Assembly (NCBI GenBank): GCA_008632985.1
Contig: QPGO01000347.1
Location: forward strand, 1-49,452
From: Psammoneis japonica
Taxonomy: Eukaryota
Direction of reading: 5' to 3'
DNA length: 49,452 bases
The translations under genes were made by a program, and so were the position numbers. Below are positions 18,299-49,452 of this stretch, one piece after another (the stretch's first letter is position 1; each line of letters begins with the position of its first letter). The notes under the pieces were generated by a model. That model was not told the DNA's origin, searched no databases, and was given only the letters and a program-made list of their open reading frames with translations.

Positions 18299-21200
18299 TC
18301 AGTCTGTGGTGAGGGCAGTGATCGCACGTTTCGCTGTTGCTGCTGCCACTGGCCAGCGTCGTTTAAAGTCCATGTCTTCGGCTTGTGTCTCCTCCATGGA
18401 CCTAGAGAACCACCTGGCACACTGGGGCATGTCAGATGGGTGATCAAAGATTTCCGCATGTTCGTCTTCAATCCGCCCGTCTAGGATGCTGTCAACAGTG
18501 AGTCTTGATTCTGAGGTTGGAGATGCGGCCACCTGCATTCGATGTTGCCACATGTCCCAAGCTGCACTCCACAGCTGTTGGATGATGCCTGCCACCCATC
18601 ATTCTCCAGCATTCCGACGTTGCATGAAATCGCAGCACGCCTGCTGAGCCGCTGCCCACTCTGTCGCTGGGAACCCTCACATCAGAGAGTGATCCCCGAG
18701 TGCCTCCTGAGCAACAAATGCCTGTTGCACCTGTGGATGATCCGATGTTGGCGTGGGGCAAGGAAGCTCATCGTGCCAACTCTTTACAATGCGGATGACA
18801 CCCTTCCTTAAGTCCGGGTGTGTCGAGTGATCCGTCATCCACTTCTCCAAGCTTCCTGTCTTTTTCTGCCACAGTTCCTGCGCCGTGTGAGCCGCACACT
18901 GCAACACGTGATCGATTCCCTTTTCATCTTCCCCGCATCTTGGACACGCCGCGCTCTCCACTTTTTTCCAATGATGCATGTTGTTGTTCGTTGGGACGAA
19001 GCCTGTGTTCCACTTTGGTTGCCACAGTTGTCGGAACGTTGGGCACCTTCGCATTGCTCGTCCCAGTGCTTTCCAATCAATGGTCACATGACTGTGTTCA
19101 ATCTTCAGCTTCTTCATCCAGTGCTCTGTCACAGGTGGACCGCAGACATGATCGAGGACCACACATTCTTTCCATGATGTCATCGTCTTTTCTCCCAACC
19201 CAACCGTCCAAATCGGTTGTGCAATTTCACATGGCGCAGCACCTTCATGTTCTCTTAGAGCCTCCTGATGCGCCTTGGCTAGAAGATCCATTTCGACATT
19301 CAATTGCTTGATGCAGGACAAGTCTTGCAGTGGTGATTGCTGATCCTTGTGGCCTTCCACCTCGACAGCCTCCACTGTCAATGGAAGTTTGTGAGAAGCA
19401 TGCTCCTGATCGTGTGAATCAAATCACAGTTGGCAAGGGTGGGGTCGTCGTACGAGTTGTAAAAACACGTTCTTAATCCCAGATCACAGTCACACGCCAG
19501 AGTTGTCTTCCCTCTGCGGATGTTGCACTGTTTGCACAATCGTTGGAGAAATGCCACAATGCCAAAAATTCCCCCCAGCTCTCCCCTGCAGGGTGCAAGG
19601 TCTGTGGTTGCCCCCGGAGTCTGATTCACTCCCTTGCACCAGTGTGAATGTCCTTCGGATGGTGGCAGGATCATGCCAGCCGCAGCCAGTCCTTCTTTGC
19701 ATGAGCCATCTGTGACACTCAGAGCCGTCCCGTTTTCCATTCCTTGAACTAGTTCGTTCAGGTCCGGTTGGTGTCCGCAAGGAACAAACGACCAGTCGGT
19801 GTTGCTGAGAGCTCTTTCCGGCTCTGTCACTCGAATCGTTGATGTCCCTGTTGGTGTGATCCTGGAACCGTTCCGCACGACCTGTGTCGGAAACGCGTCT
19901 TGAGGAATGTTGTTCACATTGCCATTTAACTGATGTCATGATCTTTTGTTGCGTCTGTGTTGAGGCAATCTCACACACAATGCAATGCCCTCCGTTTCTT
20001 TGCAGAACACTCTGTCGTCCGTTTCCGAACACCACCATGCTGTTGTCGGTTCCCGCGTCCATTTTCCAAGTGGCCGTCGAAGCCGAAGTTGTTGGTTCCC
20101 ACCAATGGCAAGGAAGCTTGTTGCAAGTGCTTCTTGCCAGAGTCGCCAGCAAGGTCTGGAAGGGTGCCCTGCCTTTGGCCAGTTGTGTGTTGTCTGGCAT
20201 GTTGCAGTTCCGCGCCAAAAGTCTGGAAGAATCCGTCTGCCATCGCCTGAAACAATGTCCGACAGCCTCACCGCTTTCAACCACATTCTGCATGAGTTAA
20301 TTTTCCTGAGATGATCTCCTTTGCAGCCGTGTGCTTCGAATGCTTCCATCAAGAAAGCATCATTTTGCCGCAGCAGTTGGATTGCAGGCGTCGGGGCTCG
20401 CAGTTTGATCGAATGTGATGAGCAGAAGTGCCACAGCGATTTGACCCAGGTTGCTGTGACTGGGATGGCAAGTTTGTTGCAGTCCAGTGAGAAAATGCTG
20501 TCTCCATGCCCAAGTTCCAGCACCATGGTTTCGCATGCATGCTGGATCTCTCTCCCCGTCATCAACTGTGTGTCCATTTGTTGCAAAAATGCTGCGACCT
20601 TTGCAATTCCCTGTTTCACAAATGGTTCCGACAAGCCCAGTCTGTTGAACCATTTGGGTGCAAACAGAATCTTCCTTGGAAATGACCGAGGATGTCCCAT
20701 TGCGGGCAGTGCAACCTCATGCAGCGGTTTCTCTGTCTTCTGACACTCCAGCTTCATTGGAGATGTTGCTGCAAGTGGACATTCAATGGACCGCATAATT
20801 CCGCCCGTCAGAGAAAACCAGGCCTCCGTTCTGTTGAGATGGCCACAACGTGCTTGATCGGCCCATTTTTCCACTTTCTTCTCCATTGCCTCGATCTGAG
20901 CTTCCGAGTTGCCGTCCAATGCAATGCATGCTCCCAACGTTTCTCTTGCTTCCGACACCTCCATTCTTTCAACTGTTGACCTGTTTCCTTCGTGATCCAG
21001 TGGGGTGATGTCTCCTGGCGATTCTTCCTTGCTCTGATGGATCCACCTGTCGTTTTTCCATTGAAAGGATGCCAGAGACCAACAGCTTTTTTCCGGCACT
21101 GGTGCACCACCCGTTGCCCTGATCCCTCCTTCCCAACAGTTGGACATGTCTTGAATCTCTGTCAGCACATCCTCACACGTTGAGTCATCAGAGTCCGGGA

Positions 21201-23850
21201 AGCATGGAAGATCTGTGTTGTCAACGAATGTGCAGCACACGCAGTGACAAGCGTTCTTGGAAATCGGAGTGACCGCCCGAACACCGCAGCCGTCTGCTTT
21301 GAGCATGTCAATGATTGGGATGCTAACCACGAGCCAAATGGCCGGTGCGGCACCATGACCTTGAAAGATTCCTTGCAGTGGGATCTCAATCACGCCGCAT
21401 GGTTCTTCCGAGTCTCCGCACGCCGTTCTCACGCAGTGTTTCATCTGAGTTGGTGTCCCGATCATCATGAAGACCTCATCTTCTCCCGCTCCAAACCTTC
21501 TCATGCAGAGAGCAGCTGCCGCATGAAGAATGCGATCGCAGCACGATTTAGCATCCGTGCTGTTGATGGCTCCCGGTTGGTGTGATTGACGAAACACATC
21601 ACCTGTCAACACCTTGTTGAGAGCGCAAAGAATTGCTCCATGCCTTTTCCGACTTCTGCAGGCTTCCCAAGGAATCGCTTTGCATGCTTCCGCGTTGTTG
21701 ACCAGTGCCCTTGCGATGCACTTGTTCATCTTGTTGTACATTGCTTCAAAAAGCACAATGATTCGAAGTTTTTTAACATGAGACGAGTCCTTCTTCTTCG
21801 GGATCATGACGTCTGTGGCCTTTGTCCAACACTTCAGTGCACAACCATGTTCAGCAGGAATTGCTGACATGCATGAGTCGAACTCTGCCAAAGTTTCATC
21901 TGAGCAACCTGCTTCACAGTCGGAGAAGGTCGGTCCGAAGGGGCTGCTGGTTGCACGTGCTTTCATTTTCTTCCATCCCTTGACATGCTCCTCTGTGGTG
22001 CAGTCCAAGTTAATTTCCGGGAGCGGTGGTTCTGGTCGCTTGAGCTGTTTGATGCACTTCGCTGTGTGTTCATCCACACCTGGGGGAATGTCGTACGTTC
22101 CCTCTAATGCTCTTTTTGCGGCCGGAGTGTCCGAGTTGCAGCCAAAGTCTTTCAAAAGAGGGTCCTTCATGAATGGAACCATGTGCTGGCTTGTTCAAGT
22201 TTGACCGTGTCGAGAGCGTCCCTCGCATTTGCATGCTTCTTCCATTCCCTCTTTTGTTGAGAATGTTTTGTCTGCTCCATTTGATCCTGGTGCCGTGACT
22301 GTTTGAAGCGCCGGTCGGGGTTTGCCGGTCACTCGTTTGATGCGACTGAACATTCTCTTTTGACGGCAGCTGTGCCGGATGATGCGTTCCTCTTTCTCCT
22401 GTGTGGTGCCCTTTCTTCTGCTTGCTTTGCACATCGGATCTTAAACTCATCTTGACGAAGCTTTGCGGCTTGTCTCTTGAGTTTGCAATGTCTTTTCATC
22501 ACCAGTTCATGCTCTTCTTGCACTCTGTGTGGTCGAAACCGAAGTGCATCCATTCTCCCTGTGCACTGCATCAATCTTTTGATGGTCTTCACGCTGACTC
22601 TCCGGAAGTGATGCATTTTGTAAACAAGTCTCCACATGCGAATCTCTTTCCTCGCTTCATTTATGACGTTGCTGGATTCCACCTCATTCACACACAGTTT
22701 CCTGCATTGTGATTTTGCCTTCTGTCGAATTTGATGGTTCAGGTGAAAGATCCGCTTGCATTCTTGCTGTTCAGCAAGTCCAAATGCATCAGAGTTTTCC
22801 AATCGTGTGGCTCTCCTGACAGATCGTGTTTCAGCAATTCTGCAACCACGAGCTGGACGCCTTCTTCACAACTTTCGGGTCTTTCAGTTTTCCTGCCAGC
22901 CGGTCTGAGACAGTCTGGAGAGTTTTGGTGGGTTAAAACCCAGTGCACTGGGTTTCGAAATGTCAATCCAAAGAATGCGGTGATCGGAAGTGCAGTCGAA
23001 GTCCCCAAAACCGGACATTCCTGCCTTGGTGACTTCCAGGGCTGGCGAAATTAGAGTTGTGTCAACCGGGATGTTGGAACGATTCTTGTCACAGGTTGCC
23101 ACTGTTGGAAGATCCGGATGCGTGGTTTTTAAGGCATCGATTAGATGAAGCGCTCTGTGCCACAAAACAAATGTCGTCCCTCTAACGTTTTCGTTGAAAT
23201 CGCCTCCCAACACTGTCAGATCACCTCCCTCCTGCCATTTCTTGATGTGGTTAGCCAAATCTTCCAGCAACGCTCATCTTGGGCATCGCAGATCATTCTT
23301 GGCAAGAAGGCATGTTTCTTGCTGAGAGCAGACTTTACCCGGGTTCGATTGGTTGTCTCAGACTGGTCGGCATGCTGTGATGATCCTTGTGTGAATTCCG
23401 GACTTGCCTCACAATCTCACCCATGTCCATCTGCCTGGTCCTGACGGATCTTCTCCGCTTGAAATTAAATGATGGTTGACATCTTGTGTGAGCAGATGGC
23501 CCACTCCTCCGCACGCCTTTTGTTTTCCGTTGAATGGTGCTGGTTGGCAGTGACGAGGGAGCTGTGTTTTGAAAGATGCCTCCATCGATCTTTCCATTGC
23601 TCGTGTTTGGGGATTCTCTTGAGGTTCAAGTTGATCTCTGTCAAGCCCATGAAATCAGAGTGGTGATCTGTCATCCACTTCGTTGTTCCTTTGTGTTTGT
23701 CTTCGGAAGAAGGTGAAACTGGAAGACCGCCAACGTTGTGAAAGGCGATTCTGATGACATTGTGTCGTTTTGTCAAGGTGTTGTCTCCCCATGCCTCATC
23801 CGATTGACGACTGTCAGCATCCTGATTTACGTCCTCCTTTTGTGGTGGTC
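18299..23850 (-). pseudogene. LINE ORF2: AP endonuclease, reverse transcriptase, RNase H and C-terminal zinc finger (frameshifted)
   Basis: APE: IRIAFHNVGG, GLTEIN, GGDFNE, SDHRILW. RT (19936..22182): KLRII, DAKSCCDRI, GIFQGHGAAP, FVDNTDL. RNase H: VTDGSC, RGELGG, VEGHKD, LNVEMDLLAK. Zinc finger: CPRCGEDEKGIDHVLQC. The 5' boundary is approximate. Confidence 0.88.
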
Positions 23851-24034
23851 GTCGTGACCGCTGAGGACGGCAAGGACTGGGGATCCTGTCCCGCTCCCTC
23901 GGCCTGAGAGCTGGGAAGGTCTTCCAGGTCTCCTTGTTTGGAGTCCTTCTGGGCTGAACCAACATCTTGATCTTTTGTTGCTCGCAGCTTCTCTGGTTCT
24001 TGGATTGGCGCTTCGTTCATTTCTTGCACCTCCT

Positions 24035-26005
24035 TTAACTTCGCTCTGGTTGATGGTGTTGTCTCACAGATGCATCTTCCTCCTGTTTGCACTCATGATG
24101 ATTTTCCAGATTATGAAGGTCAAAGGTTGCCAAGCACTTCGTGGCTGACGTGTGCTGTGTGTCGTCGTCCTCATTCCCAAGGTGGCCAACAGATTTTACA
24201 TCAGCGGCTTGAGATGGTTTTGTGGCAACTTCCTGCGCAGCTGCAGGTGGTCCTTGTGCTCTTCTCTTTCCGCTTGTGTCTTTTTGAACATTGTCCGAAG
24301 ATGATTTCCTTTTTTCATTGCCATTCGTTTGCGCTTCTTCGTCAGTCCACTGGTCTTCCACACCCCAAGGGTCTTCTTCGATCATGTCAGAAAACATTTC
24401 GCTGTCCTTGGACGTTGCCAGTCCTGTTTCTGGATCACATTCCAAATGCTCGTACATGGCTGTTCCTGCAGTGGTGAACCATGGTTCTGCGGATGCTCCG
24501 CAGGTGTGCAGGCATTCCGGGACAATGTTGTTGATCATTTGTGCAACTTGATCGACCAATTTCCTTGGAAATGTCATGACATGGTTGTTCAGTCTGTTCC
24601 ACTTGACATCAAGGTGGTGAATCAATGGAATGATCTTGTCTGGATTGGCAGGGTCTGGGATCCGTTTTTGCATGATGTGCTGCCGCAAGGTCATTTCACC
24701 TCCAGCAACTTGCATCTTGCGGTCCGGGTTGTCGAGAAAGCCGAAGTCGAGTTGTCCTGTGACTTTCTGGCAAAAGAAGTGTTGACGTTTTTGAAGCTTG
24801 TCGACATTCTCCTTGGTTTTGTCTGAGGCGCATTGTGTGGATTGGTTCGAGCAGCATGGGATGAAGCGCAACTCTAATCCCAGCACCTTCTTCCTGGCTC
24901 CTGCTCTCCACAGTCGTTCCGCCGCCAGCTTGACTTTGTGCACTTTGCTGGACTCAACAATGATGTGAAGAGCTTCCGGATTCTTGTTTGGCGCATTCCT
25001 GTCAAAAGTGGGTCGTTTTCTGTCCTTTCCCACTGTGGACCGCCATTGAATGCCGAGGCTGTCACAGTCCCTGCCTGGGCCAAGAGCTTCACTGAATTGT
25101 CTGTGTGGTGTCCGCTCACTCATTGTTTTGGCACTCTGGCAAAGCCGTCCAATGCATTCAAAGCATGTCGATTGACAGGGTGTGGGATTGCGTCCGATGG
25201 AGAATTTGCCTTTTTCCATGTCTGCGAACATCCCTGAGAGTTGTGAGCCGCAACCAGCCATGATTCTGGTGCTGCAGTCTTCTGCCTCCTGGATGAGGCA
25301 AAGCTGGCAGCATGTCGTGTGTTCTGCGTTGACTCTTGGATTGAGACAGTCTGCCCCCAAGAAGGTGCTTAGCATTTCTCTTTCCTTCGCTGGTCCTTCC
25401 GGGACATCTTCTGGGGATGCCATTTCTCCAAAGGCATCCGCTGGGTCGGGGTCCCATGTGCCAACTCGGACTTCTTTTCCAAGCATCTCTTGCATTGTCG
25501 CGAACGATTCTCGCAGGACTGAGGCTGCCACTTTCAGAGGTTTTTTGGATGGTGGAATCATCAGAAATGCGTTGTGATGCAAATGACACCAAGGAATTCC
25601 TTCGGATTCGTCGTTGGACTCTGTTGCTTGTGGTGTCTCGATGTGCGGTGACTCTCTTCCACTGGTTTCTTCCTCGGCTCCTTCGTGCAGTGCATCAGTC
25701 TGCTGCAACTCCTGTTTGTTTGTTTGTTCTTTGTTTTCGTCGTCGGATTCCGTAGAGTGATTCTTGCTTGTGAGTTGTTGGAAGGCATCTTCGTCGGGTT
25801 CTTTGTGCATGTGATCTTCTTCCGTGGTTGCCATTTCCGCCGGAGCAATTGCCTTTGAGTTGTCCTCCTTTTTGTTTTTTCTGCTTTGCGCAAAGGGTTT
25901 TCCATCATCAGGTGTAAGTTTTCCTTCCTTGTTGTTGTCTTCCTTGGTGCGTGAGTTTTGCGTGGAATTTGCACGAGTGTTCTTGTTTTTTACGGGGTCG
26001 TCCAC
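24035..26005 (-). pseudogene. LINE ORF1 (656-aa open segment, charged low-complexity N-terminus)
   Basis: Long ORF upstream of the APE domain, inside the TSD-bounded element. Only 1 Tyr remains. Confidence 0.75.
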
Positions 26006-26386
26006 TCATTTGTGTTGTCATCCATTTCCTCATTAAAAGGTCTTTCGGTTGTTTCGTTCATTTGTCCTTTACCTTTTTTCTTTTTATCTCCTTTGCGTGG
26101 AGAAGTGTTTTTCTTTCCGCCGGTGCTTCTGCGTTTGGCACCTGCCATTGTGCGATTTTTTTAGCTTGTTGATTGTTCGTGCGTGCGAGTTATGGGGATC
26201 GTTGGTTGCAACACAAACGACACCGCCGAGCGAGAAGCAAAGCAGTGAGTAGTACGAGTCTTCACAAAAGCATGGTTCGTCCTTCAACCGATAGGTTCAC
26301 TCCAACTTGGACTTTTCTCTGACGACTCGCTCGCAGATCGCAGATCGCAGCAAAACGAAGAGCTTAGCGATAGAGTGAAGATAAAG

Positions 26387-28294
26387 ATGCCCGACGACGA
26401 ATCTCCTCCTGGAATAACGACCGCTGCCCCTGGTCGACAGTTGAAACTTCCAGTAGGTCGTTTAGCGCAACCGGATGAAGATGTTTTCGTATCTCTCAGC
26501 GATACCGTTGAGAAGCTGGAGACACTGATGGCGGATGCCGCGAAGAAAGGTGGTAGAATTGTTTTTATTCGGGCACCCGTCGGAAGTGGAAAGTCAACTC
26601 TTGTTAAATATCTTACAATGAAGCATAGCGACCAGTTTGTAAGCGTTCGCCCCGCGACTTCGGCGAAAAATTGGTACAGGAGCGCCATCAAAGCCAGCGG
26701 CCTAGATCCGACAACTAGCGACATCGCCGACGCGCTGCAGGCCATCGCAACAATGGGCAAGACAATTGTCATCGACGAAGCGCATAGTCTGTTTGCGTGG
26801 CCAGAAGTGGTGGCTGACTTCTTCAAATTTACGGAGCATAACCAGCCCCCACTCAGATATCTTCTTTTTTCCGCTTCCGGCTCTGCTGTGGACAGCAAAG
26901 GAAAGACTATTGCAACGCCGGGCGAAATTAGACAGAAATACCTTTGGTACCCTCCTCAACCGGATGCGGATCAATTGAGCCAAGATCTGGTGGAAGCCGA
27001 AAAACCAATTTACCTCGATTCCGACTCCGTCCGTTTCTTTACCAAGCTCTGCGGTGGCCATCGTGGGATCTTTATGGAAGCCATGGGCTGGGTCCAGGAA
27101 TGCCAAGACAATACTCCAGACAAACTAGAAAACACAAGTTGGCGCATAAGAGATAGCGTTTCACACGTCCGCCGATCGTTTGAGGATAGCCGCTTGGGAG
27201 GACGCAAGGCGTGGAACACCGGTTTGCGGGCGGCATTCAAGCAAAGTCGCGCCGTACGAGTGAATGGCGAGTTCGCCATACTAGGGAAAATTCCGGCAGA
27301 ATTCGGACTTGTTTTGTACGGCGGGCCCAAAAGACGTGCCGAGCTGAATGGCAAGGAGCGCGATTTGACCATCAACGGCTTTTTGTTTCCCGAGCGCCAG
27401 AGTACCAATGAGGAGTTCGTCGCTTTCGACTGGATGGATCCCTTGGTGCTGTATGGGGTCCCGAATCCTATAATGGCCGAGTATTACGGTGACATTTTAC
27501 CACTCGAGGTGGAAACCTACAAGCGTGAATTGGTAGAAGACTTGAAGAAACCGGTTTCTGCTGCTGACCTGATAGCCCGCGCCCTTCCGTACATGACATT
27601 GTCCGTCGTAGTGGGCGTCCCAATTTCAAGAGGTAACAAGAAACTAAGCGATCCGCTCTCGGTAAATGCGCTGCCGTACGAAGACGATTACAACCGCGCC
27701 ATGGCGGAAATACTCAGAAATCAAATGGATTACATTGTATCAACTCCTCTAGATGAAAAAAAGGGAAAGACCGACATAGTCGTGTCCTATGAAGACGACA
27801 CCACTTGCGCAATCGAGTCTATCATGTCATACCAACGCCCGGTATGTGTAATGCTTTGACTTTAAGATACGCAGTGCTTGGTGTTATTGTCACTTTCTCA
27901 TTATCCTTTGTCCTCTCATATGAATCTACAGGGAGCCCACGAAGAGCATGCTGGTCGATTTTTTATTCATGAAAAAGCAAACTACGCTGACGCGAAACAA
28001 AAGGCCCTCGTCATCATTGGTGACAAGGCAGCAAACGTGAAAGACCGCATCCAACATGTCTCAGAAGTGTTGAAGAACAAAAAAGGCATCGTTGAAATTA
28101 TTGGTCTTTGTGTTTCTCTAAATCATGACAGCTATGAAATGTATCTGGAGGGGGCTGAAAAACCTCTGTTCTTTGTGTGCGATCGAGTTGCCAAATGTCT
28201 GGAAAAAGACGATATGGGACGGTTCAAGACTGCGCAAGTTTGTTCCCTTGAATCTTCTGAACACGCGCAGAAGAAACAAAAGGCGTCAGGTTAA
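26387..28294 (+). CDS. P-loop NTPase fused to a C-terminal PD-(D/E)XK restriction-endonuclease-like domain (Crinkler/CR NTPase+REase architecture), ~605 aa; intron 27842..27931
   Basis: Walker A RAPVGSGKST, Walker B IVIDEAH, LCGGHRG. The C-terminal YEDDY...GKTDIVV...CAIES...EEHAGRF...Y resembles CR-REase motifs. A GTATGT donor and CTACAG acceptor join ORF 26375..27859 in frame with ORF 27878..28294. Unmutated composition. Confidence 0.8.
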
Positions 28295-30593
28295 AGTGTG
28301 CCTTTCAGTTTGAAGAAAACGCACACAAAATGCTCGATTCATTGAATCATCTACAAAAATGCATGATCATCGTTTACGTCTTCACTTCGGTAGGTATGAC
28401 AGTACGACGCAAAGATTTAAGTACTCTGAATGTTTTATGGCTGCCCTGTCCAGAGAGGACTTTGTTACAGTCAGGCGCCCCGATAGTAGTACGTAGAACT
28501 AAATATGCAGAGTAGAATCAATAGCTTGCTCACCGCGACGGGTGGAACCCGGGGGGAGCCACAGCTACATTTTGGCCAAGAAATTCAACGGTCTACTGTC
28601 GGGAAACTTGACAGTAAAAACGTATTTGCACTTAAAGTAACAAAGTTGGGAGTGTATTTTTTGGAGACGCGCCAGATCTTTCGTCGCGCCATGTAGAACA
28701 TTTTGGTCAACAATTGCGATGTTAAAAAAAATGCTTGAGTCAAACAAAGAAAAAATTCGAATGGTGCCAATTCGGTCCGAAGAAAAGGTCAAAATGCGTC
28801 CTCGCGAACGGTTTCCGCGCTCCCCATCCTCTTTCTCCATCGCGCAAAACGAGACAGACGAAGCCACGGCAGCAACGGGAAATTGACGAAAAGCATTTGT
28901 GCGATTGACTGCCCAAGCAAAGACATTCTCTCAACAAGCAGTTGGAGCAAAGACGAAAGCGACGAGTCCCAGTGCCTCCTTCAAGCATGCTTTCACCTTT
29001 TCACTCACTGTTTTTTTTCTCGTCATTGTTTTGTTTCTTGGGCTCTTCAACAGAGCCAGAGGTGTGCTTGCGAAACCACTGTCAGTGTCTCAAGGTTGTT
29101 TCCACTCATCTCAACAATGCACAGGTTGCAATCCCTCCAGCATCATTGGGCAAAAACACCCTGGAGGTTTGTGTTGCTGTGCCAGCAATCTTGTGCCAAG
29201 CATTTTGTCAGCCAAGGCCTTGTTGGAAATTTTGTTGGGATGAGAAAACAAAAAAAACTTGGATGGACCATTGAGTTTCCAACAAAAGCTTGCCTTGACA
29301 ATTGCCCCACTTGTCTTGCTGGATGACAAAAAATGCCATCGTTTGGACAACATGGGTGGTTTCTCTGGCTCCCACCAAACAACAACTCAAGCAAGCCTTT
29401 TATGAGCAGCAATGGCAGGCACATCATCTCCCTCTGTCTGCATCAGGACCATCTGTGACAAATCCATTGGTGCTGGAAGAGACGGCTCATTTCCGTCAAG
29501 CTTCTTGGGAACACAGAAGCCATTGTGGAATGTGCTGCCTCAGGATTGCATGGCGCACCCATTTCACATCACACCAAGGAACTTTGCAGCACTTTTTTCA
29601 TGGAGATGTGTCAATGCATGCAGACACCATGGCTTGCAGTGCAGGAAACACCAACATTGTGGGCACAAACAGTGCTCTGCTTGAAACGGCACCACAAGAC
29701 TTTTCCTGAGCACAGCCTGAACAGCACAAGGGCACATGTTGCAGTCAAAACTCAAATTTTTCGAATGTGTTTTATGGACAACAACAACAGCAGCATCCAC
29801 TGCCACAGCAGGAACAGCACCACTTGCCACAGTGGCAGCACCAACAACAAACAGCAAACCATTGGATGACTCAATCCATCGTGACTGAGCCCTCCTTTGG
29901 AAATCCCTCTTTTGCACTGCCACAGAGTTCAGAGTCATGAAAATTATGGGACCATTCTGCATTGTCCAGTCAACAGCATTGCTTGCAGAAAGGCTCACAA
30001 AACTGCTTTCCATTGAGCTGTCCAATGGCCCAACCAAATGGTCCACAAGTTGCGCACAGTCCCCAGCAACCACTTCACCACCAAGACATGCCATTGCAGC
30101 AGAAACAAGAAAGGGACAGACCAACTGATTGAGATGTCCATTTCATTTCCAGCACTTTTTAATTGCATGTGTTGGACCTTTCCTTGTGTGCAAAGCTCTG
30201 TTCTTGATCTGAGCCAAGCGCATCTGTTTGGAGCGCCCCTCTCATCTGACAACCATGCAACAAGACCATCCACCTCAGAATCAAACTCAACCAGCATGGA
30301 GGCATCTGGACAGAGTGTTTTCAATGATTCTTCAGTCTTCAAAAAGCAAAGCTCTCTCAAAACTGAAGCAGCACCCATGCTCTAGTCTCACCCATTGCAG
30401 CATCAAACATTGCAGGAGATTCTCCGCCGTTTGTTGAGGCTGCAATGACATCCTCACAACAATGCCTTGCCATGTTGACATGGAGCCAATCATTGGCATT
30501 GGTTGGAATCAATGCATCCCAAAAAAGTGAACCCAAGTCCAAATTCCATGTGCAAACCAACCCGGGTGTGTCAAGGGTGGCAACAATGCTTGG
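27548..30593. repeat. Block Y copy 1 (3' part of the NTPase gene plus downstream region D), duplicated at 46081..49452
   Basis: Direct collinear alignment from 'ggtttctgctgctgac' to 'aaagtgaaccc...aacaatgctt'. Confidence 0.9.
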
Positions 30594-30889
30594 TGACATG
30601 GCCACGACATCACGAGCCTTTGTCGTGCAAGACGATGAGCAAATGTTGTGAGGCACCACAACAAAGATCTGTCATCAACAAGTCAACTTGCAATGCAGCA
30701 CAATGTTGAAGAATTGTTGGCAGCATCTGATGCAATGACAGAGTTGCCAACAGCATGGACAAGTTTGCAAGACCTGTGACCAGGCATTGCCGCCAGAAAG
30801 TCAAGTTTTCCTGCTTCTTCTTTGTGAGGTGCATCAGCAGAGGGCAACACTGCTGTTGCCAGAAACAACAGAAACATGACAAAATGCAT
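29900..30889 (-). pseudogene. Possible decayed gene for a secreted protein
   Basis: Signal-peptide-like start (MHFVMFLLFLATAVLPSADA) followed by protein-like fragments in shifting frames, partly conserved in the 48800..49452 copy. No family recognised. Confidence 0.3.
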
Positions 30890-32121
30890 GTTTGGTTGAC
30901 TTCAGCTCCACAGTGCAGCTCTCCAGCCTGTCTTTGATCTTTTTTGTCACACAGTGGCTGCCTGTCACCCAGAGCTTCCTGGTTGGTGGTGCGCAACATT
31001 TTGAGGCTTGTTCTTGGACTGCACAGAAATTTGTCAACAACCCCTCTCCATGGTCAAGATTGTCAACAAATGCATGTTGACAGGGTGCTCATGCCACCAC
31101 ATGAAATTTTCAGCATGTCACCCTTCAATGCTGTGAAGATGCTGCCCCCCAAAACCCGCTGCCACTCAGCACACTCCGGGCATTGTTTTGTTGACCTTGC
31201 CAAGGCTGTGCCTGCTGTGCATGTCAGATGATGGAATGCTGCTGTTGATGCTTTTTGTTGAGGGTGCCTTGCATGTGCACAGCTGCCCTGTGTTGTTTGC
31301 ATGTTGGGCCCAACATGATTCCTCCACTTGGGGAAAAATGGCTGGCGCTGATGCTGGCTCACAATTTTTATTTTGCTGCTCTCCTTTCCACAAAAACCAG
31401 CAGCAAGAAGAAAAGCAAGAGTCAGACAAGGCAGCCTCCTCCCACAAATCATGGGATTGACACCTTTGGCAGAGCACCCTGTTTGTCTTGGTGCGCAACG
31501 CCAGAGACTTGCTGTTGGCGGCAGTGGCCAATCTCTCACTCACAAACTCCCAAGCAGCCAACGGCATCTTGAGCCCAACCTGCTTGCTCTGAAGCCCTTG
31601 CAGCTTGCAAGAAAAGCAACAAGAGGACATCTCAAACAAACATCAGCTGTCAAGCTCTCCATTGGTCTCTCACTTTCTTGCAAAACGACGTCCGTCCCCC
31701 ACCCATGCCGGCACACACAAAAGAAATCCAACATGCCACACCGCCCGGCACTACATACAGTACATACAGTGCGAGCCGACAGATGGACGAAAAAAGAACT
31801 GTCATGCTTTTTAAGAAAGCACGACTAAATGTTCTGTGAAGATTGTCTTTCATATAAAATCACGTCCAAACTGAAGTAGATTGGACACCAAAATGACTCT
31901 CGCCGGCATGGCATGCCAGTTCTTCTTCTGTCTGGTGGCGGTTTTTGATGGGTATTGAGTCGAATCAAGAGAGCTTCGATCACCTCTGTGCTTGTTTCAG
32001 GTTCAATTGATGTGCTATACCAGAACAACGCGATTGCCACCGTATTCTAAGGAATTCTAAGGAACACACGGAGCATCAGAAGACAATCACCAGAATTAAA
32101 ACAGCGTAGGGCTCTGAAAAT

Positions 32122-34242
32122 ATGTACCGGTATGATGCAAAACGTTCCTTGGCGGTGTGTTTCGCACTTCTCGTCATTCTTGGAGTTGTGGTGCGCTTCA
32201 ATGTCGACAGCGACGTTAACGGGGTTTCGGATATACTGAGCCTTCGATCTACTGTCGATAGGCAAGGAAAAAAGATAAAAAAGCTCGTGAACTCAAACTG
32301 CGTTTACAGCGTTTCAGCGTTTGATCGTACGGGTCAAAGGCAGTCCGAACCACTTTCCAACAGCTGTCTCGAGTCCAATGCCGACCTGTTGACACACCTT
32401 GTGGCGCAATCCGGTGCCGACGTCGATGATCCGAACGCCACCGCCGTCATCGCGATCAGCGTCGTTGATCGTCAAGAAATTCAGATGATTGAATCACTAG
32501 CACTCCTCGCTGACGAGTTTCTTACGCCAGTATGGACTGGCGCATCATGGCGGAGCGCTTCTTAGTAGACAAGGCGGGGGCTCTGACTCGGATGAATCTG
32601 GGAACACCACGGGCAGTGATGTTATGGAGGCAAAACCTACCGTTGAAAAGTCAAGACTCTTGTTGGACCCGGCGGCGTATGCACCGGCTGAAAGCGGAAC
32701 TTTCGCAGACCCTTTCATCTCTGCAATCCGTGCCCTTCGTAATGATGAGAGTGGCGGATTGTTGCGCGAGAACAGGAACGCTGCCTCGGTCGGAAAGCAC
32801 AATTCAAACTTGATGGAGGAATTGATTCATGTCGATTTGATTCTCGTTCGGGTCTTGGAGGAGAAATTGGCAGCTTTTTCCAATGCCTTGAGACGCTTTC
32901 AGTTCCCAAAACCACTTCCGATGATGAAGGCGAGGATAGTGAGTGTGCCGCCAGTATGGCAATTAATCATGGCCGAACATGGGTCAAATACGGCGGCCCA
33001 ACGGACTTTCTTGGAGCGTGGACCACGACCAGTGCCAGTTCGCTTACCGAATCCATCGCAAAGGGCTTTCCCTTTATCCGCGTCTCACCTGTTCAGTGGG
33101 CACGAACGTACCATTTTGATACCTGCAGTGCCGAAACAGTTGCTGCAATTGATCCTGAACTTGGTATTGTGAATGGCTTGGACTGCGGCTTTCTTCCCAT
33201 TTACGGTGGGACCTGCCTACGTGACCGAGTCGATCCCTCGCTCAAGTGTATGAGCGAGTTTAAGATGGGGAGCCTCAGTCATGTCGTCCTTCCAAAGAAT
33301 GGCATCCCAGAGGAGGTTTGTCAGTCAAGCCACGAAGAAGCCCCGCCATACACTGCAACTACCCTTCATGGTTCCTATGCTAAGCCATTCTTCGAGTGGT
33401 GCCCATCGTGTATGGCATTTGGCTATAAAGGCAACCGGACGATCACTCCGAAACTCTTGTCGAATCCGTCAGCACCTATGGGCTTTGGCGAGTTGAACAA
33501 GGCGGACATGGCGACCATCAACACAAACATGCCTACCTGCGGAATGGAGCTCAATGACCTCTCGTGCGGTGACGACGGCAGACCATGCTGTTGGAGCGAA
33601 GTGAAAATTTCGCAAGATGTCCTTGGGAGCCACAACGGAACTGCTGAAAAGATACCACGGGCATTTTACCCCAGTATCTTCAACCTGTATCTTGTCCGTT
33701 TCAATCGGTCTAGTAGGAATCGCATCGCCCGCCTTTATCATCCACGCTTGTCAGCCATGATTGCTCGCGGGGTTGGATGGGAGTCAGCCTTGGCAACCGG
33801 ACGCTGCGCGACTCTGCACATTCGTCGAGGCGACAATATGGACCGGTGCAAGAGTGGAGAGAAATTCTTTTGTAGCATGAACCTAACGCTTGCGGACTAC
33901 ATGGAGAAGGCCGCACCAATGCTCGACCAGCTCGGTGATGCCAAGCACGTCTTTGTCATGACGGACGATCCGGCCGTTGCCGATAAGAAGCGACAAGCAC
34001 CCTTTCTGAACGATGGATATTTCATTGAGGTCATTTCTGGATATAATCAGTATAGCGAGGAGACCTACAATGACTGGGACCCGTTCATTGAGAGTCTCCA
34101 CGGAGCCCAGTTTTGCCGAGCCCTTGTTGGGCTCCACATTTCGACGGTTTCCGCGCTTGTCTTTAGAAGCATTTGCGTGAGATGGGGCGAGTGCCCCTTG
34201 ACTGACGACTTTAGTGGCAGACGTGGCGTTGCCTGGCAGTGA
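32122..34242 (+). CDS. Fucosyltransferase-like paralog, copy 4; three apparent 1-nt deletions (~32529, ~32580, ~32905)
   Basis: ORFs 32122..32565, 32624..33172 and 32956..34242 are collinear with copy 2. HIRRGD/FVMTDD motifs are intact, Tyr codons are retained and composition is unmutated. Confidence 0.75.
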
Positions 34243-37200
34243 CAGAAATGTGATCCCACTCCTTCTGCACATCATGGAGATTTGCTTTGGTTTTCGTCAA
34301 CCGTTTCCCTGCAATTGTTGCGGTCACGGCACTGCCTCTGTGGTGAGACTTTGGGAGAGTGGAGGCCAGTCACTCTCACAATTGCAAACTTGTGTGTTGC
34401 CAGCTAAAGAGGCCAACTCATTTAACAACGACGCAGTTTTGAATGTTGAGCATGACACCACAGTTGCGTCGCTCACGTGCCGTCATTTATACGGACACGT
34501 GTCGATCCTCGTTTAGCTGACGGCAAACACACGCCTTTTTCTCAGACTGTCTGTTTAGGCCACAGTCCAATCTAAAAGGGATGATGCAGTGAGACAATGT
34601 GTCATCTGAGAGTTGACGGGGTTGCGTCAAAAGAGCAAAGCAGCATGGTGTGTCTGGGGTGGGGGGTCACCACTTGGCGGCTCCAAATGTGATGTTCGCG
34701 CCACTCCCATTGGCACCACTGTTCCACTCACCAAATTGTGGCCTGATGGTTTTCATCATTGTCTTTGGACCAAGAATGTCACACCATCTGAATGCTGCCC
34801 CTTGACTGTGGCAATTGGACAAGTTGGTGGTTTTCGTGCATTGAGTGCGTGCTTGGTTTTGTTTTGTTTGGGCATGAGCTTTTTTGGCTGACAAAAGCAT
34901 GCAAAGTTTTGCTCAAATTGTTGCACGGACATTTTTCTTGGGCACCTCTTTCTGACACCACCAAGCACCAAGAATTTGCCATGGTTTGATCCCACAACAT
35001 CTCTCATGTCAAGATTTTCAAACACACGCAGCTCAATGAGGGCACATGAATGCCCAGCTTGTTGCACCCAAACAATGAATGTTTGCAGTGCATGCAAAAT
35101 GGCAAACCAGCCAAAGCTGAAAAAACAGCCATTGACAAGTTTTGCTTCAGAGCCAATCCTTTGTGGGAATGACTTTGTTTTTGTGCTGTGAAAGGCACTT
35201 TTCTTTGAAGCTTTTGTCCCTGGTGTCAAAACAGCAGTGCTGCATTTTGACTTTTCTCTTCATTTGAGGCTGCTCACAAAACAAGATCATGGGTGCAGCT
35301 GCTGCATCCATGAGTGGCAGAGACATTTCCACTGCTCCAGCAGCTGCAAATCAGGATCTCAGTCAACTCCATGAGGTTGGTGCTTCCAACACCAAGGTTG
35401 TGTTTGTGCCCAAATGCCAATTTGATTCTTGTTGTGTGAGCCTTGTTGGAGCAAGGCATTTTTGCACCACCCCCTGTCTCTGAAGAAGAGCATGTCCCTG
35501 AGCTCACCATGGAGCACACTTGTGCTGTTGCCACCAATCCTTTGTTGGGTGGTAATTTTTGAAGTGCACCGCATCTGACAAATGACCTCAAGCATCAAAC
35601 ATTTCAGCATGTTTGCAGTTCTCACCATGCCATTGTTCCTGAGCATGAGCTTTGAGTGTTTCCACCTGTCACAGCTGCAAGAAGCTGTCTGCAAGGCCTC
35701 AACAGCATGGCACCAGCAAGTTCAAATGGTTGGGTTGGCCCTGCACTCTTGGTGTGTTTGTTGTTGCACCAGTTCCCAGCACCCCAATGGGCACTTTGTT
35801 TTTGCTGCACCAGTGCAAGCACATTGTTTGCACTCAGCACATCATCCATCATTTCCTGTTTCTCTTTTGCAGTCTTTTGATTTGTTGCAAGGTCTGCGGG
35901 AGCAACACTCAAAAAGATGCGCTTGCACTCACTCTCTGAAACCAACAAACCTGCAATTGATGAACCACATCATGCACTGCACAGCACAAGGCACAAATTT
36001 TGGCATCAAACTTTGGCGCCAATTGGCCATTTGCCAATGGCAGGTGCTCTCCAAGGCCGCCCAGAATGTGATGTCCTGTGGGAGCAGTGCTGCAATGGTG
36101 TGTTGTCAGATGCAAAGTTGCTGTTTCAAAACATGGCTCACAACAAGGCAAAGTGTGTTTGCTCCTCTTTGACATTCAAGAGCAAGAAAAAAGTTCTGGT
36201 TCTTCAATGGGCAAACATTTTTTTCATGGCTTTAACCCACTGCAATTAAGATGTTTTGAGGTGCTTGGTGAAGTGCTTTAAAGACTTGCCTCATTTCAAG
36301 CACCTTTGCTCATGTGCTGAATTTTTGAAGGCAAGCAAACATCCGCAAAGAATGCTGCTGCTAAATTGCAATTGCGTGTCACAGTTGTGTTGGTTGTGTG
36401 CTTGATTTGCGCAGATGGGAGACTCCTGCCACTGCTGACCCCCCACTCAAGATTGCAAAGCTGCGCTGCTGCCCATTGATTTGGCATCTTCAAAGCACTT
36501 TGAAGTTGGCCCTGAACAGGGCCTGCTGGAACATGACAAGTTGGCCAAGTTCTGTGGGTTTTCACCTGCTGCTGCAACTCACTCAGTGAGTTGTTGAGTG
36601 TGTTCTCCATCCATTGCCTTGACATTGGCCATGCTGTCATGACTCCATCCAAGTCTGCCTCTGCTCCTGCCCCACTCCATTGCTCTGCTTTGAAAGGTGT
36701 TGCCAAGCACATTTCTTGTCCCAAGCATTGGAGATCATCCAGCTGCAAGAAACAAATGTGCAATCTGAATTTGCCCCAACATCTTTTTCTTGGACAACTT
36801 GTCACTGATCTGCATGTTCTTCCTGCTCTTTCTGCTGACATTTGCTTGCAGCAACTGCTTGCTCTCTTGGACACAGCCCTGGGCCAGTCTGGGTGGAGAT
36901 GGCTCACTCACAGCTGATGTGCAATGCCCCATGCTTGGCAGAATGATTGTGAGTTTTGTGTGCACACATTCAAAATGTTGCTCATTTGTTCCACACATTT
37001 TCTCATGCAAGGGGTGACATTTCAAGCATCCTCTGGCATGGTGCTTGCTTTTCATCATGACCACACACTGCTCTTACAGACCAGCTCATCATCTGCTTCC
37101 AACTTGCATCTTTTTCTCAGCAGTGCAGCTGCTGCTCAAACAGTGGGTTTTGAGGGTGGTGCCTGAAGCCATCCAGCTGTGTGGGTTTTGGGGAAAAGGC

Positions 37201-46080: not shown

Positions 46081-46826
46081 AAACTGGTTTCTGCTGCTGA
46101 CTTGACAGCCTGCACCCTTCCGTGCATGACATTGTCTGTCATGGTGGGCGCCCCAATTTCAAGAGGTGACAAGAAACTGAGTGATCCACTCTCGGCAAAC
46201 GTGCTGCCGTACAAAGATGATTGCAACCGTGCCATGGCAGAGACACTCAGAAATCAAATGGATTGCATTGCATCAACTCCACCAGATGAAAAAAAGGGAA
46301 AGACGGACATGGTCATGTCCTGTGAAGACGACACCACTTGCGCAATCGAGTCTGTGATGGCATGCCAACACCCGGCATGTTCAATGTTTGACTTTAAGAT
46401 GCGCATTGCTTGGCGTCATTGTCAATTTCTCATTGTCCTTTGTCCTTTCATGTGAGTCTGCAGGGAGCCCATGAAGAGCATGCTGGTTGATTTTTTGTTC
46501 ATGAAAAAGCAAGCTGCGCTGACTTGAAACAAAAGGCCCTCATCATCATTGGTGACAAGGCAGCAAACGTGAAAGGCCGCATCCAACATGTCTCAGAAGT
46601 GTTGAAGAACAAAAAAGGCATCATTGAAATTGTTGGTCTTTGTGTTTCTCTAAATCACGACAGCTGTGAAATGCATCTGGAGGGGGCTGAAGAGCCTCTT
46701 TTCTTTGTGTGCGATCGAGTTGCCAAATGTCTGGAAAAAGATGACATGGGATGGTTCAAGACCATGCAAGTTTGTTCCCTTGAATCTTCTGAACATGCAC
46801 AGAAGAAACAGAAGGCGTCAGGTTGA
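46081..46826 (+). pseudogene. 5'-truncated, hypermutated duplicate of the NTPase-REase gene
   Basis: Aligns to 27548..28294. Tyr->Cys/His throughout, splice donor GTATG->GCATG, CGA->TGA stop near 46488. Confidence 0.92.
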
Positions 46827-49452
46827 AGTGTGCCTTTTCTTTTGAAGAAAACGCATGGGTGAGGTGACAGTTAGATTAATGTCGTCCACACCAGAGTTTT
46901 CCAAGTGCATTGTCTTGCTCACAAAATGTTCGATTCATTGAATCATCTACAAAAATGCATGATCATTGTTTGCATCTTCACTTTGGTGGGTGTGACAGCA
47001 TGATGCAAAGATTTAAGTGCCCTGAATGTCTTGTGGCTGCCCTGTCCAGAGAGGCAGAGCAGAATCAAGAGCATGCTCACCGCGACGGGTGGAACCCGGG
47101 GGGAGCCACAGCTGCATTTTGGCCAAGAAATTCAAAGGTCTGCTGTTGGGAAACTTGACAGTAAAAACGTGTTTGCACTTACAGTGACAAAGTTGGGACT
47201 TCATTGTTTGGAGACGTGCTGAGGTCTTTCGTCGCGCCACCTCAGTGTTTTTGCATTTGAAAAATTGTGGAACATTTTGGTCAAAAATTACGACATTCAA
47301 AAAAGAAGCTCGAGTCAAATAAGAAAAAAATCGAATGGTGCCAACAGGGTCCGAAAGAAAGGTCAAAATGCGTCCACGAACGGTTTCCGTTTCTGCACTC
47401 TCTGTCCTCTTTCTCCATCATTGCACAAAAAGCCACGGTGGCAACGGGAAATTGACATGAAGCATTTGTTGCAATTGATTGCCCAAGCAAAGACATTCTC
47501 TCAACAAGCAGTTGGAGCAAAGATGACAGCAATGAGTCCTGGCACCTGATTTGGAGCCATTCTGTTGGCACTGTCGAGCAACTCTCTGTGCCTTCCGGCG
47601 CATGTGTGTGGCTCCTTCCACATCGCAATGCACGCCATCAACTCCAAGCATGCTTTTGCCTTTTCACTCTTTTTTTTCTGGTTGTCATTGTTTTGTTTCT
47701 TGGATTCTTCAACAGAGTTAGAAGCACACTTGCGAAGCTGCTGTCAGTTTCTAAAGATTGCTTCCACTCATCTCAACAGTGCATGTTTTGCAATCCCCCC
47801 AGCATTGCTGGGTGAAGCTGCCCTGGTGGTTTGCATCCACTGCACCAATGATCTCATGCCAAGCATTTCATTGGCTGAGCAAGGCTTTCTTGTCAGAAAT
47901 TTTGTCAGGATGAGAACAAAAAGACTTGGGTGGACCGCCAAGTTTCCAACAAAAGTTTGCCTTGACAATCATTCTGTTTGTCTTGTCTGACAACAAAAAG
48001 AGCCATCATTTGGACAACATGGGCAGCTTTGCATGTCGCACCATGTGTCAGTTGTGATGACTGGTGCCCTTGGATCTTCTCCTTCTCCAACTGATTCAAT
48101 CAAAACAGTGTGTGAGTCTTGGCAGCTTCTTCTTCCAAAGCAGCCATCCAAGCACTGGCATCATTTGCCAAGGCCAACACCCTGGCGCCCACCAAACAAC
48201 AACTCAAGCAAGCCTTTCATGAGCAGCAATGACAGGCACATTGTCCCCCTCTGTCTGCATCAGGGCTGTTTGCTGCAGATCCATGATCAGCACTGGAAGA
48301 GATTGCCGCCTTGTTTGCCCTTTGTGCCAGTGGGCATTGCAAAGTGACATGCTGGAGAGCAAAACAGACATTTGCACCAAGCTTCTTGGGAATTTAGAAG
48401 CCATTGTGGAACACGTGCCACCTCGGGATTGCACCATGGCGCACCCACTTCACATTGCACCAAGGAACTTTGCAGCAATTTTTTCATGGAGATGCATCAA
48501 TGCATGAGGACACCATGGCTCACGGTGCAGGAAATGCTGACATTGTGGGCACAAACAATGCTCTGCTTGAAATGGTGCCATGGGACTTTTCCTGCACACA
48601 GCCCGAACAGTGCAAGGACACATGCTGCAGTCAAAACTTGATTTTTTCTTAAAAGCATTTGACAGACAACAACAACAGCTGTGCCAGCCACTGCAGCAGC
48701 AGCAGTGCCAACAACAAATGGCAAACCATTGGATGACTCAATCTGTCCTGACCTAAAATCCCTCTTTTGCCCCACCACAGAGTCGTGAGAATTGCAACGT
48801 GGGATGGGACCATTCTGCATTGTCCAGTCAACAGCATTGCTTGCAGGAAGGTCCACAAAACTGCTTTCTGTTGGGCTGTCCAACAGCCCAGCCAAATGGT
48901 CCACAGTTGCACACAATCCCCAGCAACCATTTTGCCACTAAAATGTGCTGTTGCAGCAGAAACAAATGGACAGAACAACTGATCAAGATGTCCATTTTAT
49001 TTCCAGCAGTTTTCACTTGTGTGTGTCATGATGCAAACCTTTCCTTGTGCAAAGCTCTGTTCTTGATCTGAGCTGAGCACATCTGTTTGGAGCCCCTCTC
49101 TCATCTGACAACCATGCAACAAGACCACCCACCTTGGAACCAAGCACAGCCAGCACAGAGGCATCTGGACAGAGTGTTTCAAATGACTTTTTTCAGCTCT
49201 TGAAAAGTGAAGCTCCTCTCTTGAAACTCAAGCACCCAGAGTCTCACCTGTTGCAGCATCAAACATTGGTGTGGGAGAACCCCCACCATTTGTTGAGGCT
49301 GCAATGATGTCCTTGGAACCATGCCTTGCTGTGTTAACAGAGAGCTGACTGCTGGCATTGGCTGGAATCAATGCACCCCAAGAAAGTGAACCCGAGTCCA
49401 AATTTCATGCACGGACCAATCTGGGTGCATCCAGGGTTGAACAATGCTTTTG
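46081..49452. repeat. Block Y copy 2 (runs off the window end)
   Basis: Collinear with 27548..~30593, with a few extra insertions. Confidence 0.9.

Follow-up and report, generated by a model that had tools for sequence, protein, structure and literature searches.

Near-saturating loss of TpA dinucleotides from transposon-like sequence and dead gene duplicates beside intact genes in the diatom Psammoneis japonica

The window analyzed here is the whole of contig QPGO01000347.1 (49,452 nucleotides, forward strand; assembly GCA_008632985.1) of the diatom Psammoneis japonica, in which blocks holding expressed genes alternate with long domains where the dinucleotide TpA (5'-TA-3', TA) has nearly vanished. 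Across the window, the observed/expected ratio (O/E) is 0.15 for TpA, 0.50 for CpG (CG), 1.59 for TG, and 1.63 for CA. Self-BLAST revealed that the window is assembled from segmental duplicates, including copies of an AAA-type NTPase gene and of a gene for which no Pfam family was found at E ≤ 0.01 (gene X); it also holds a non-long-terminal-repeat (non-LTR) long interspersed nuclear element (LINE) with a reverse transcriptase (RT) frame and other sequence resembling transposable elements (TEs) (Table 1). An original prediction had singled out one copy of the NTPase 3' end as the product of a hypermutation converting TpA to TpG or CpA, and the present analysis follows it up in this one 49-kb window, in one assembly, and with the runs of one sample.

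Table 1. Features of the window and their dinucleotide composition
Feature	Coordinates	Strand	Composition and basis
TA-normal blocks	1-3990, 26000-28740, 31745-34580		9567 bp; TA O/E 0.53, CG O/E 1.06
TA-depleted, CpG largely kept	9000-11600, 18001-25999, 43001-47599		15199 bp; TA O/E 0.10, CG O/E 0.66
Depleted in TA and CpG			24338 bp; TA O/E 0.04, CG O/E 0.15
TA-normal block including gene X c1	1..3990		TpA O/E ~0.5, CpG O/E ~0.9-1.3
Continuous TA-depleted domain	3991..25999		CpG also lost at 3991-8700 and 11650-18000; much CpG retained in 9000-11600 and 18001-25999
TA-normal block with expressed NTPase gene	26000..28740	+	TpA O/E 0.43-0.73, CpG O/E 1.1-1.2
TA-depleted domain 3' of NTPase gene	28741..31744		First 250 bp TA-free and CpG-rich
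TA-normal block with gene X c3	31745..34580	+	TA from 31752 to 34573
TA-depleted domain with TE-like sequence, possible Copia-type RT fragment, and duplicate B	34581..49452
Gene X copy c1, TA-normal	from 1596 (frame region 1486-3341)
Gene X copy c2a, TpA converted, CpG kept	9221..11585	+	767-aa stop-free frame 9278-11578
Gene X copy c2b, TpA and CpG nearly all converted	12353..15056	+	Compared at sites where c1 and c3 agree
Gene X copy c3, TA-normal, expressed, multi-copy	from 32163 (frame region 32110-34239)	+
LINE (non-LTR) RT frame, Tyr-less at consensus sites	19939..22194	-	Homologue alignment
LINE apurinic-type endonuclease remnant	22887..23273	-	Pfam Exo_endo_phos, E = 1.9e-4, below curated cut-off
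Expressed AAA-type NTPase gene, 3' end; TA-normal, ancestral-like	27548..28294	+	Pfam, spliced contig, homologues
NTPase intron	27841-27930	+	90 nt, GT..AG; skipped by run X2 contig joining 27840 to 27931
Possible Copia-type RT fragment	40591-41403		PHVDD at 41236
Dead duplicate of NTPase 3' end, TpA and CpG hypermutated	46081..46826	+	Alignment
Duplicate B, whole extent; copy of 27548-30591, TA-depleted throughout	46081..49449	+	Self-BLAST

The NTPase gene is marked by a frame at 26249-27856 with a Pfam AAA_22 match and AAA-type NTPase domains, and its relatives include a protein from a Bacillariaceae metagenome-assembled genome (P0008 cluster, 54% identity), one from Seminavis robusta (50%), and others from Symbiodiniaceae (~33%). 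Self-BLAST aligned duplicate B with the gene in the pairs 46081-46855/27548-28323, 46917-47539/28321-28969, 47642-48023/28979-29356, and 48369-49449/29488-30591, and since the duplicate retains the 90-nt intron plus 3 kb of downstream flank, it arose by duplication of DNA and is no retrocopy. When 27548-28294 was aligned globally with 46081-46826 (89.6% identity), the outcome reproduced exactly the count of the original prediction, by which 29 of 32 TpA sites had become TG or CA (19 TG and 10 CA, with 3 unchanged). The 42 CG sites of the gene had turned into TG in 14 cases, CA in 10, and another dinucleotide in 2, with 16 unchanged; the resulting 24/42 agrees with the earlier estimate that roughly 55-60% of CpGs change, and the accompanying remark that other substitutions are few was likewise borne out, with differences at 22 of the 598 bases outside TA and CG. 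Relative to such a background base, the rate of change was ~63 times higher per TA site and ~26 times higher per CG site, and the contrast between TA sites and background bases was highly significant by Fisher's test (p = 8e-33). In the reverse comparison, none of the three TA of the copy differs from the gene (0/3 are new), while CA was changed at 1/48 sites and TG at 6/58. Conversion extends into the adjoining pair 46917-47539/28321-28969, in which 13 of 17 TA were converted.

A comparison of two sequences is inherently symmetric, and this symmetry is all that speaks for the reversed reading, by which TG and CA would be ancestral and the intact genes would have acquired TA, through a CpA>TpA change like that of repeat-induced point mutation (RIP), together with CG. 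The direction was examined by aligning the spliced NTPase product with 31 homologues. At all nine Tyr codons that differ between gene and copy B (the gene's TAY appears as TGY or CAY in the copy, and the nine Tyr have turned into Cys or His), the homologues mostly show Tyr or Phe, and at ATA and GTA (Ile, Val) and CGN (Arg) codons they likewise agree with the gene against copy B, in which Arg CGN codons have become Cys, Trp, or stop, with one CGA now a TGA stop. TA and CG are accordingly taken on these protein alignments to be the ancestral state, with TG/CA derived, because the outgroup proteins side with the gene and not with the copy. The copies bearing TA are, moreover, the expressed and spliced ones, and 25 homologues of the LINE show Tyr where the window reads Cys. 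The reversed, RIP-like direction is thus refuted by the NTPase and LINE homologue alignments and retains a negligible chance, and the TA to TG/CA direction that had been proposed earlier is upheld by the outgroup homologues of both elements.

The LINE, which has a homologue (P0104) with Exo_endo_phos, RVT_1, and zf-RVT domains, presents the same outcome at the protein level. At 17 columns where the family consensus is Tyr, no Tyr is kept in the window (Cys 12, His 1, Phe 2, Ala 2), whereas Trp (15/16) and Lys (14/15) are nearly always retained. The near-absence of Tyr that had been noticed in this RT was recovered as 2 Tyr in 752 aa, and the frame indeed reads KSCCDR where the family consensus is KSCYDR; overall, Tyr stands at 0.3% and Cys at 5.5%, against 2.4-3.9% and 1.1-3.1%, respectively, in 25 homologues. 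A sense-strand bias of the LINE (Tyr>Cys 12 versus Tyr>His 1) was considered and rejected, since Tyr codons are TAY on the sense strand by definition and the raw TG and CA counts are about equal over the RT frame. Separately, the plus strand of 22001-26000, which holds the 5' part of this minus-strand LINE, shows an AT skew between -0.25 and -0.39 and almost no GC skew (near 0), so that the LINE sense strand is A-rich here.

Gene X allowed two further polarized comparisons, using the sites at which copies c1 and c3 agree as a proxy for the ancestor of c2a and c2b. Copy c2b has converted 21/23 TA and 49/56 CG to TG/CA, while c2a has converted 15/23 TA and only 13/57 CG, the latter being the background level; Tyr codons read Cys or His in the 767-aa frame of c2a. 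Pooling the three polarized comparisons gives 96 ancestral TA, of which 54 became TG, 24 became CA, 13 were kept, and 5 underwent some other change. These alignments show the direction of the change, its TpA specificity, and its near-saturation.

Across the window, TA depletion is arranged in blocks with sharp borders. The depleted blocks total 39,537 bp with TA O/E of 0.04-0.10, TG of 1.47-1.86, and CA of 1.55-1.86, versus 0.53, 1.17, and 1.11 in the genic blocks, and at the borders the last TA on one side and the next on the other lie at 3970 and 4544, 28723 and ~29317, 31369 and 31752, and 34573 and 35553. The longest TA-free run spans 1753 bp (39829-41582), a length that chance cannot explain given the 0.034 TA per bp of genic DNA. 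CpG does not follow TpA everywhere: the LINE block has TA O/E of ~0.1 with CG at ~0.65-0.75, and the bins 28751-29000 (TA 0, CG 20) and 43001-43250 (TA 0, CG 15), both at edges of depleted domains, show that TpA loss there reaches beyond, or precedes, CpG loss. Between 29001 and 31500, 250-bp bins hold 0-2 TA and 2-5 CG. A few pockets within depleted domains (7501-7750, with TA 4 and CG 10; 19251-19500; 42751-43000) contain a few TA and keep more CG, and these may have been inserted more recently or may be protected locally.

The depletion borders coincide with transcript cover. Within 27400-47000, run X2 has depth over 27400-28707 and 31978-34593, both TA-normal (23-53 over c3), and elsewhere leaves traces of 1-3 in two bins. 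Although labeled 'DNA?', this run behaves as a transcriptome, which we infer from one spliced contig (27400-28512) that has the 90-nt NTPase intron precisely removed; lack of X2 cover is not in itself proof of silence. The original prediction had described a targeted mutational process on silenced DNA, and the context-specific signature together with borders at transcribed blocks supports that description.

A technical origin, in which TG or CA would be written by misassembly or by systematic miscalling of bases at a modified TA motif, was weighed because some long-read data contain A>G-type miscalls due to methylated motifs. Run X1, which we infer to be short-read data, provided 657,387 contig records with 140.7 million letters (mean ~214 nt), and these independently built contigs reproduce the stretch in all 30 of the 30 bins of 27400-47000, with word depth mostly ~58-120 and 136-238 over c3. 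Among 199 aligned X1 contigs, 95 are at least 99% alike to the window, and several pieces of 0.6-1 kb lie within TA-free DNA with 0-3 differences. The changes also act like inherited substitutions, being shared or discordant between old duplicates, and ordinary CpG decay and indels occur alongside them. An assembly or base-calling artefact is therefore very unlikely, and we leave it an exceedingly slim chance.

The sequence context of the change was further resolved by scoring A>G per strand-reading against the 5' neighbor. Conversion after T reached 77/188 readings, as compared with 29/455 after A, 31/433 after C, and 28/410 after G, that is, 6-7% of readings after any base other than T. On the 3' side, TA followed by a pyrimidine (TAY) was converted in 56/106 readings versus 19/78 when followed by a purine (TAR; p = 1.3e-4). 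The survivors tell the same story: remaining TA are mostly YTAR (depleted/genic counts: TTAA 34/25, CTAG 13/10, CTAA 36/32), whereas ATAT (0/18), ATAC (1/58), and ATAG (1/34) have nearly vanished. Given that the depleted DNA exceeds the genic reference 4.1-fold in length, even YTAR is reduced about three-fold. The process thus prefers N-T-A-Y and spares Y-T-A-R (N, any base).

CpG loss showed no preference for its 5' neighbor (TCG 23/72, ACG 26/66, CCG 15/52, GCG 21/72), and a single T-preferring deaminase acting on both dinucleotides was rejected, the 5'-T preference being absent at CpG. The CpG decay is separate from the TpA process, running in parallel and more slowly, as for ordinary deamination of 5-methylcytosine (5mC); the two are separable because c2a and 28751-29000 lose TA without CG loss. 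These observations bear directly on the idea that TpA loss is a repair by-product, in which T:G mismatches from 5mC deamination would recruit error-prone patch repair (Pol eta, 'WA' type, W being A or T) that places G opposite T at TA. Pol eta is known for its WA hotspot in antibody hypermutation, with strand bias, and the co-occurrence of TpA and CpG loss in most depleted DNA and a strand asymmetry of about 2:1 would suit such an origin. The AA context, however, is not raised (29/455, versus 31/433 for CA and 28/410 for GA), so the WA-motif polymerase signature is ruled out; c2a has lost 15/23 TA with CpG loss at background (13/57), and the stretch 28751-29000 is TA-free yet CpG-rich. We therefore allow this explanation only a small chance.

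Comparison of duplicated depleted copies with one another gave information on timing. Most TG/CA sites are shared between such copies, and among adjacent double differences the class that sets TG against CA was the most frequent, with a share of 31/66 for the depleted parts of c1 versus c3 and 37/60 for the A versus B flanks, as opposed to 2/41 in a genic pair. Each discordant doublet is one ancestral TA or CG converted independently after duplication, and the presence of both shared and discordant sites means that conversion ran before and after the local duplications. A test for runs of same-strand change, as a processive enzyme on a single strand would leave, found no clustering (permutation p = 0.70, 0.13, and 0.24).

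The presence of TG alongside CA in one and the same copy also speaks against adenosine-to-inosine editing of RNA by an ADAR-like enzyme with a 5' U preference, fixed into new copies by reverse transcription. Such editing could add to the load of the LINE (sense-strand Tyr>Cys 12, Tyr>His 1). ADARs favor a 3' G, while the preferred 3' neighbor here is a pyrimidine, and copy B, with its 90-nt intron and 3 kb of flank, is a duplicate of DNA. An upstream-U preference of ADARs is noted in the accessible part of a preprint on a comparable signature (10.64898/2026.01.13.699255). RNA editing is contradicted for the gene duplicates and is a possible extra source for the LINE; as an account of the signature we give it a slim chance.

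With respect to the trigger, a repeat-induced flavor had originally been attached to the process, and the expressed copies of gene X speak against it. Over several hundred bp, c1 and c3 match at ~100% identity, and both retain TA O/E of ~0.5 despite ~4x X1 word depth (196-238, versus ~58 for unique DNA); their TA sites differ at 19/65, only slightly above the expectation for 90% identity. Since c1 and c3 keep their TA, homology alone is no trigger, and silent versus transcribed state is the better fit.

Taken together, a real mutator targeted to TpA is very probable. We propose that a regionally targeted process would turn 5'-TA-3' into TG or CA (A:T>G:C) in DNA outside actively transcribed genes, namely the LINE, other TE-like sequence, and dead host-gene duplicates with their introns and flanks, and that the targeting would follow chromatin or transcriptional state rather than sequence homology. 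A TadA/ADAT2-like or other zinc deaminase would convert DNA adenine to hypoxanthine, which would then be copied as G. As a whole, targeted TpA mutation of non-transcribed DNA by adenine deamination, of the kind reported from Bigelowiella natans, is held with moderate confidence as the best explanation, whereas adenine deamination as the chemistry is a tentative suggestion that could well prove wrong. The readings based on a repair polymerase, RNA editing, artefact, or reversed direction are contradicted by the specific tests given above.

As regards the earlier description of the process as adenine-targeted, an adenine target and a thymine target are indistinguishable from sequence because TA is palindromic. 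All TA counts consequently fit T>C equally, and the context result reads equally well as an R-T-A preference, which leaves room for a thymine route in which a TET/JBP-type dioxygenase would modify the T of 5'-TA in silent chromatin (to 5-hydroxymethyl- or 5-formyl-uracil, for example) and mispairing with G would give T>C. In some algae, modified T shows a preference for positions preceding A, and 5-formyluracil mispairs with G. Modified-T mispairing is usually weak, however, as set against ~63 times background here, and the present analysis yielded no evidence for such a base or enzyme in diatoms. In addition, the sole published proposal for the signature, in the accessible text of the preprint, is adenine deamination (10.64898/2026.01.13.699255). 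The thymine route is thus unlikely, with a distinct minority chance. A route through modified adenine, which had also been put forward, is disfavored in the case of N6-methyladenine, as a study available in part places this base in eukaryotes on ApT near active gene starts and not on TEs, and reports only 5mC from Phaeodactylum tricornutum (10.1101/2024.10.28.620566).

For the ADAT2/TadA family, the likeness to the proposed adenine deamination lies in the conversion of DNA adenine to hypoxanthine, giving A>G; the natural tRNA target A34 follows U33, which would match T at position -1. We know of no ADAT2/TadA member that targets chromatin domains, and nothing in the window ties the signature to the family. 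The statement that TadA-derived editors favor TA found no backing, given the broad adenine context compatibility of ABE7.10, ABEmax, and ABE8e, and amphioxus BjADAT2, a deaminase of both A and C in DNA that prefers GAA and TCG, has weak activity that is directed at hairpins or single strands, unlike what is proposed here (both from the accessible part of PMC10354150).

Several points weigh against the proposed targeted adenine deamination. Adenine as the target is an assumption, A>G on one strand being T>C on the other. BjADAT2, the only ADAT2 with a measured DNA context in the accessible part of its description, prefers GAA and not TA (PMC10354150). No enzyme was identified, and the 191 frames searched with Pfam yield no candidate. 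The plus strand carries an excess of TG over CA (54:24) for which the proposal does not account, and as the three polarized copies share one orientation, effects of transcription, replication, and context are inseparable in it. Targeting to silent chromatin relies on the single RNA-like run X2 over 19.6 kb, and X1 is possibly the record's own source sample and in that case not independent. Finally, among related LINE loci in metagenomes, 0/43 are TA-depleted (TA O/E 0.52-0.84), and 0/148 representative homologues scored have Tyr below 1% (lowest 1.22%). The absence of the signature from these LINE loci and homologues is weak evidence, as mutated copies would escape one of the two metagenome search patterns, in which Tyr or Phe was mandatory, and called proteins are biased toward intact copies.

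Whether such a phenomenon had been published was doubtful at the outset, and this doubt is now partly settled by a 2026 preprint on the chlorarachniophyte B. natans, while our literature search, in which subscription journals were thinly covered, found no report of TpA hypermutation for diatoms. As far as the accessible text of that preprint goes (Mettrop et al., bioRxiv 10.64898/2026.01.13.699255), integrated DNA of nucleocytoplasmic large DNA viruses (NCLDV) and virophages undergoes TpA-restricted hypermutation. Of the 302 single-nucleotide mutations recorded in the nuclear genome of mutation-accumulation lines, two integrated viral regions received 231 (~6e-7 per site per generation). All but one of these (230) were A>G or T>C, and the authors place every one of the A>G or T>C changes on TpA; only some lines were affected. 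The long-term footprint consists of TpA depletion with CpA+TpG gain and of enrichment in RT and DDE endonuclease Pfam families, and the agent suggested by the authors is an ADAT2-like deaminase of DNA adenine. The two cases share A:T>G:C change at TpA only (78/96 polarized TA to TG/CA here), TpA depletion coupled to CpA+TpG gain, RT-bearing sequences among the targets, and a regional action that spares neighboring host DNA, here at ~63 times background with borders sharp within a few hundred bp; the enzyme has been identified in neither. It is likely that both reflect the same kind of process.

The differences from B. natans, a rhizarian, are equally instructive, the present lineage being a diatom and the words 'diatom' and 'stramenopile' being absent from the preprint text. 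TA O/E here is 0.04-0.10 over ~39.5 kb, as against a viral Rho(TpA) of 0.45 in the accessible portion of the preprint, which calls only 124 clusters of at least three 1-kb windows genome-wide. The targets here include dead host-gene duplicates with introns and not just foreign DNA, the focus of the available preprint text, and no viral genes were recognized in the window. Parallel CpG decay accompanies the process here, 'CpG' being absent from the preprint text, and a preference for N-T-A-Y is seen, no extended context being given in the accessible Results and Discussion of the preprint. De novo events were observed in B. natans, while those in the window are deduced.

RIP, known from Neurospora and other fungi, resembles the present signature as a defense-like hypermutation of duplicated or mobile DNA that acts on one dinucleotide, approaches saturation, and leaves a skewed landscape. 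It differs in direction, since its C>T change at CpA creates TpA, the very dinucleotide that is consumed here in favor of CpA/TpG, and in being triggered by duplication, whereas near-identical, multi-copy expressed genes are spared here. Decay of 5mC shares with the window the CpG>TpG/CpA change, which is found in the TpA-depleted domains (copy B 24/42, c2b 49/56); it cannot alter TpA, whose loss is the faster of the two (63 versus 26 times background), and was rejected as the whole explanation because it accounts for the CpG part only. Neither RIP nor 5mC decay can yield the signature because both are C>T processes, as had been stated originally, and the direction is indeed opposite and TpA holds no cytosine. 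In the accessible part of one study, diatom TEs are 5mC-methylated, and diatoms encode DNMT4, which is related to the RIP factor RID and has no known function (PMC9998398).

The window thus adds a second-lineage case of the B. natans signature, and one far more saturated than the first. It goes beyond B. natans in its near-saturation, host pseudogene targets, extended motif, and borders at transcribed genes, and in being decoupled from CpG decay and from copy number. To our knowledge, all eukaryotic hypermutation defenses described before 2026 (RIP, AID/APOBEC, 5mC decay) were C>T. The preprint, as far as accessible, documents a live process in one rhizarian alga with a modest long-term footprint, in viral inserts only; diatoms are major ocean primary producers, and the signature in the present window is saturated and lies on transposons and dead host genes. 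These findings suggest that a so far unnamed DNA-editing defense may be widespread in marine algae. More speculatively still than the chemistry itself, it is conceivable that diatoms and chlorarachniophytes, and possibly many algae of the stramenopile-alveolate-rhizarian (SAR) assemblage, share an enzymatic defense that deaminates adenine at N-T-A-Y in silent chromatin. If so, editing of transposons, integrated viruses, and dead genes would last as long as their silence, until every TA is erased, and all TAA/TAG stops and Tyr codons would eventually be lost from silent DNA. This would be the first natural DNA adenine-editing defense of eukaryotes, with a chemistry that mirrors fungal RIP, and nature would then supply context-specific DNA adenine deaminases, enzymes of interest to base editing when their context is defined. 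The wider phylogenetic range allows the enzyme to be sought through the algae that bear the footprint and the genes they share, and the N-T-A-Y preference, the YTAR escape, the borders at transcribed genes, and the independence from CpG decay and copy number are mechanistic properties open to experimental test.

The erasure of TAA and TAG also leaves dead DNA rich in long open frames, with 237 stop-free frames of at least 90 aa in 49 kb, and gene finders risk calling phantom proteins, Tyr-poor and Cys-rich, in such DNA. A Pfam search of 191 of these 237 frames returned only the AAA-type NTPase, a sub-threshold Exo_endo_phos, and a chance-level IncF match; in agreement with the original statement that no candidate enzyme is encoded in the window, a deaminase-like family was absent from these 191 frames, and the pattern HxE...PCxxC was not found in the seven frames searched by script. 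The PHVDD motif reported from a Copia RT was located at nt 41236, while the Copia label itself is weakly supported, with no Pfam match even at E ≤ 5 in eight frames around this position; an Atlas feature search of the region, which serves as a lead only, placed nearest to it clusters with 23-44% RVT_2 members (score 0.92).

Gene X invites some further observations on its structure. Its protein has a hydrophobic N-terminal segment, and a unit made of gene X and ~4 kb of TA-free flank is present three times (1596-5578, 9221-17800, and 31951-39178). The border between TA-normal and TA-free DNA lies at a homologous position in c1 (3970) and c3 (34573), and the second halves of these two copies are almost identical, which may stem from gene conversion or from a young duplication. 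Copy c2a forms a single continuous frame, while c1 and c3 shift frame twice, and after the peptide 'RRFQFP' it is without a segment that resembles intron read-through in c1 and c3; judged from these frames, c2a may be a processed, intron-less copy.

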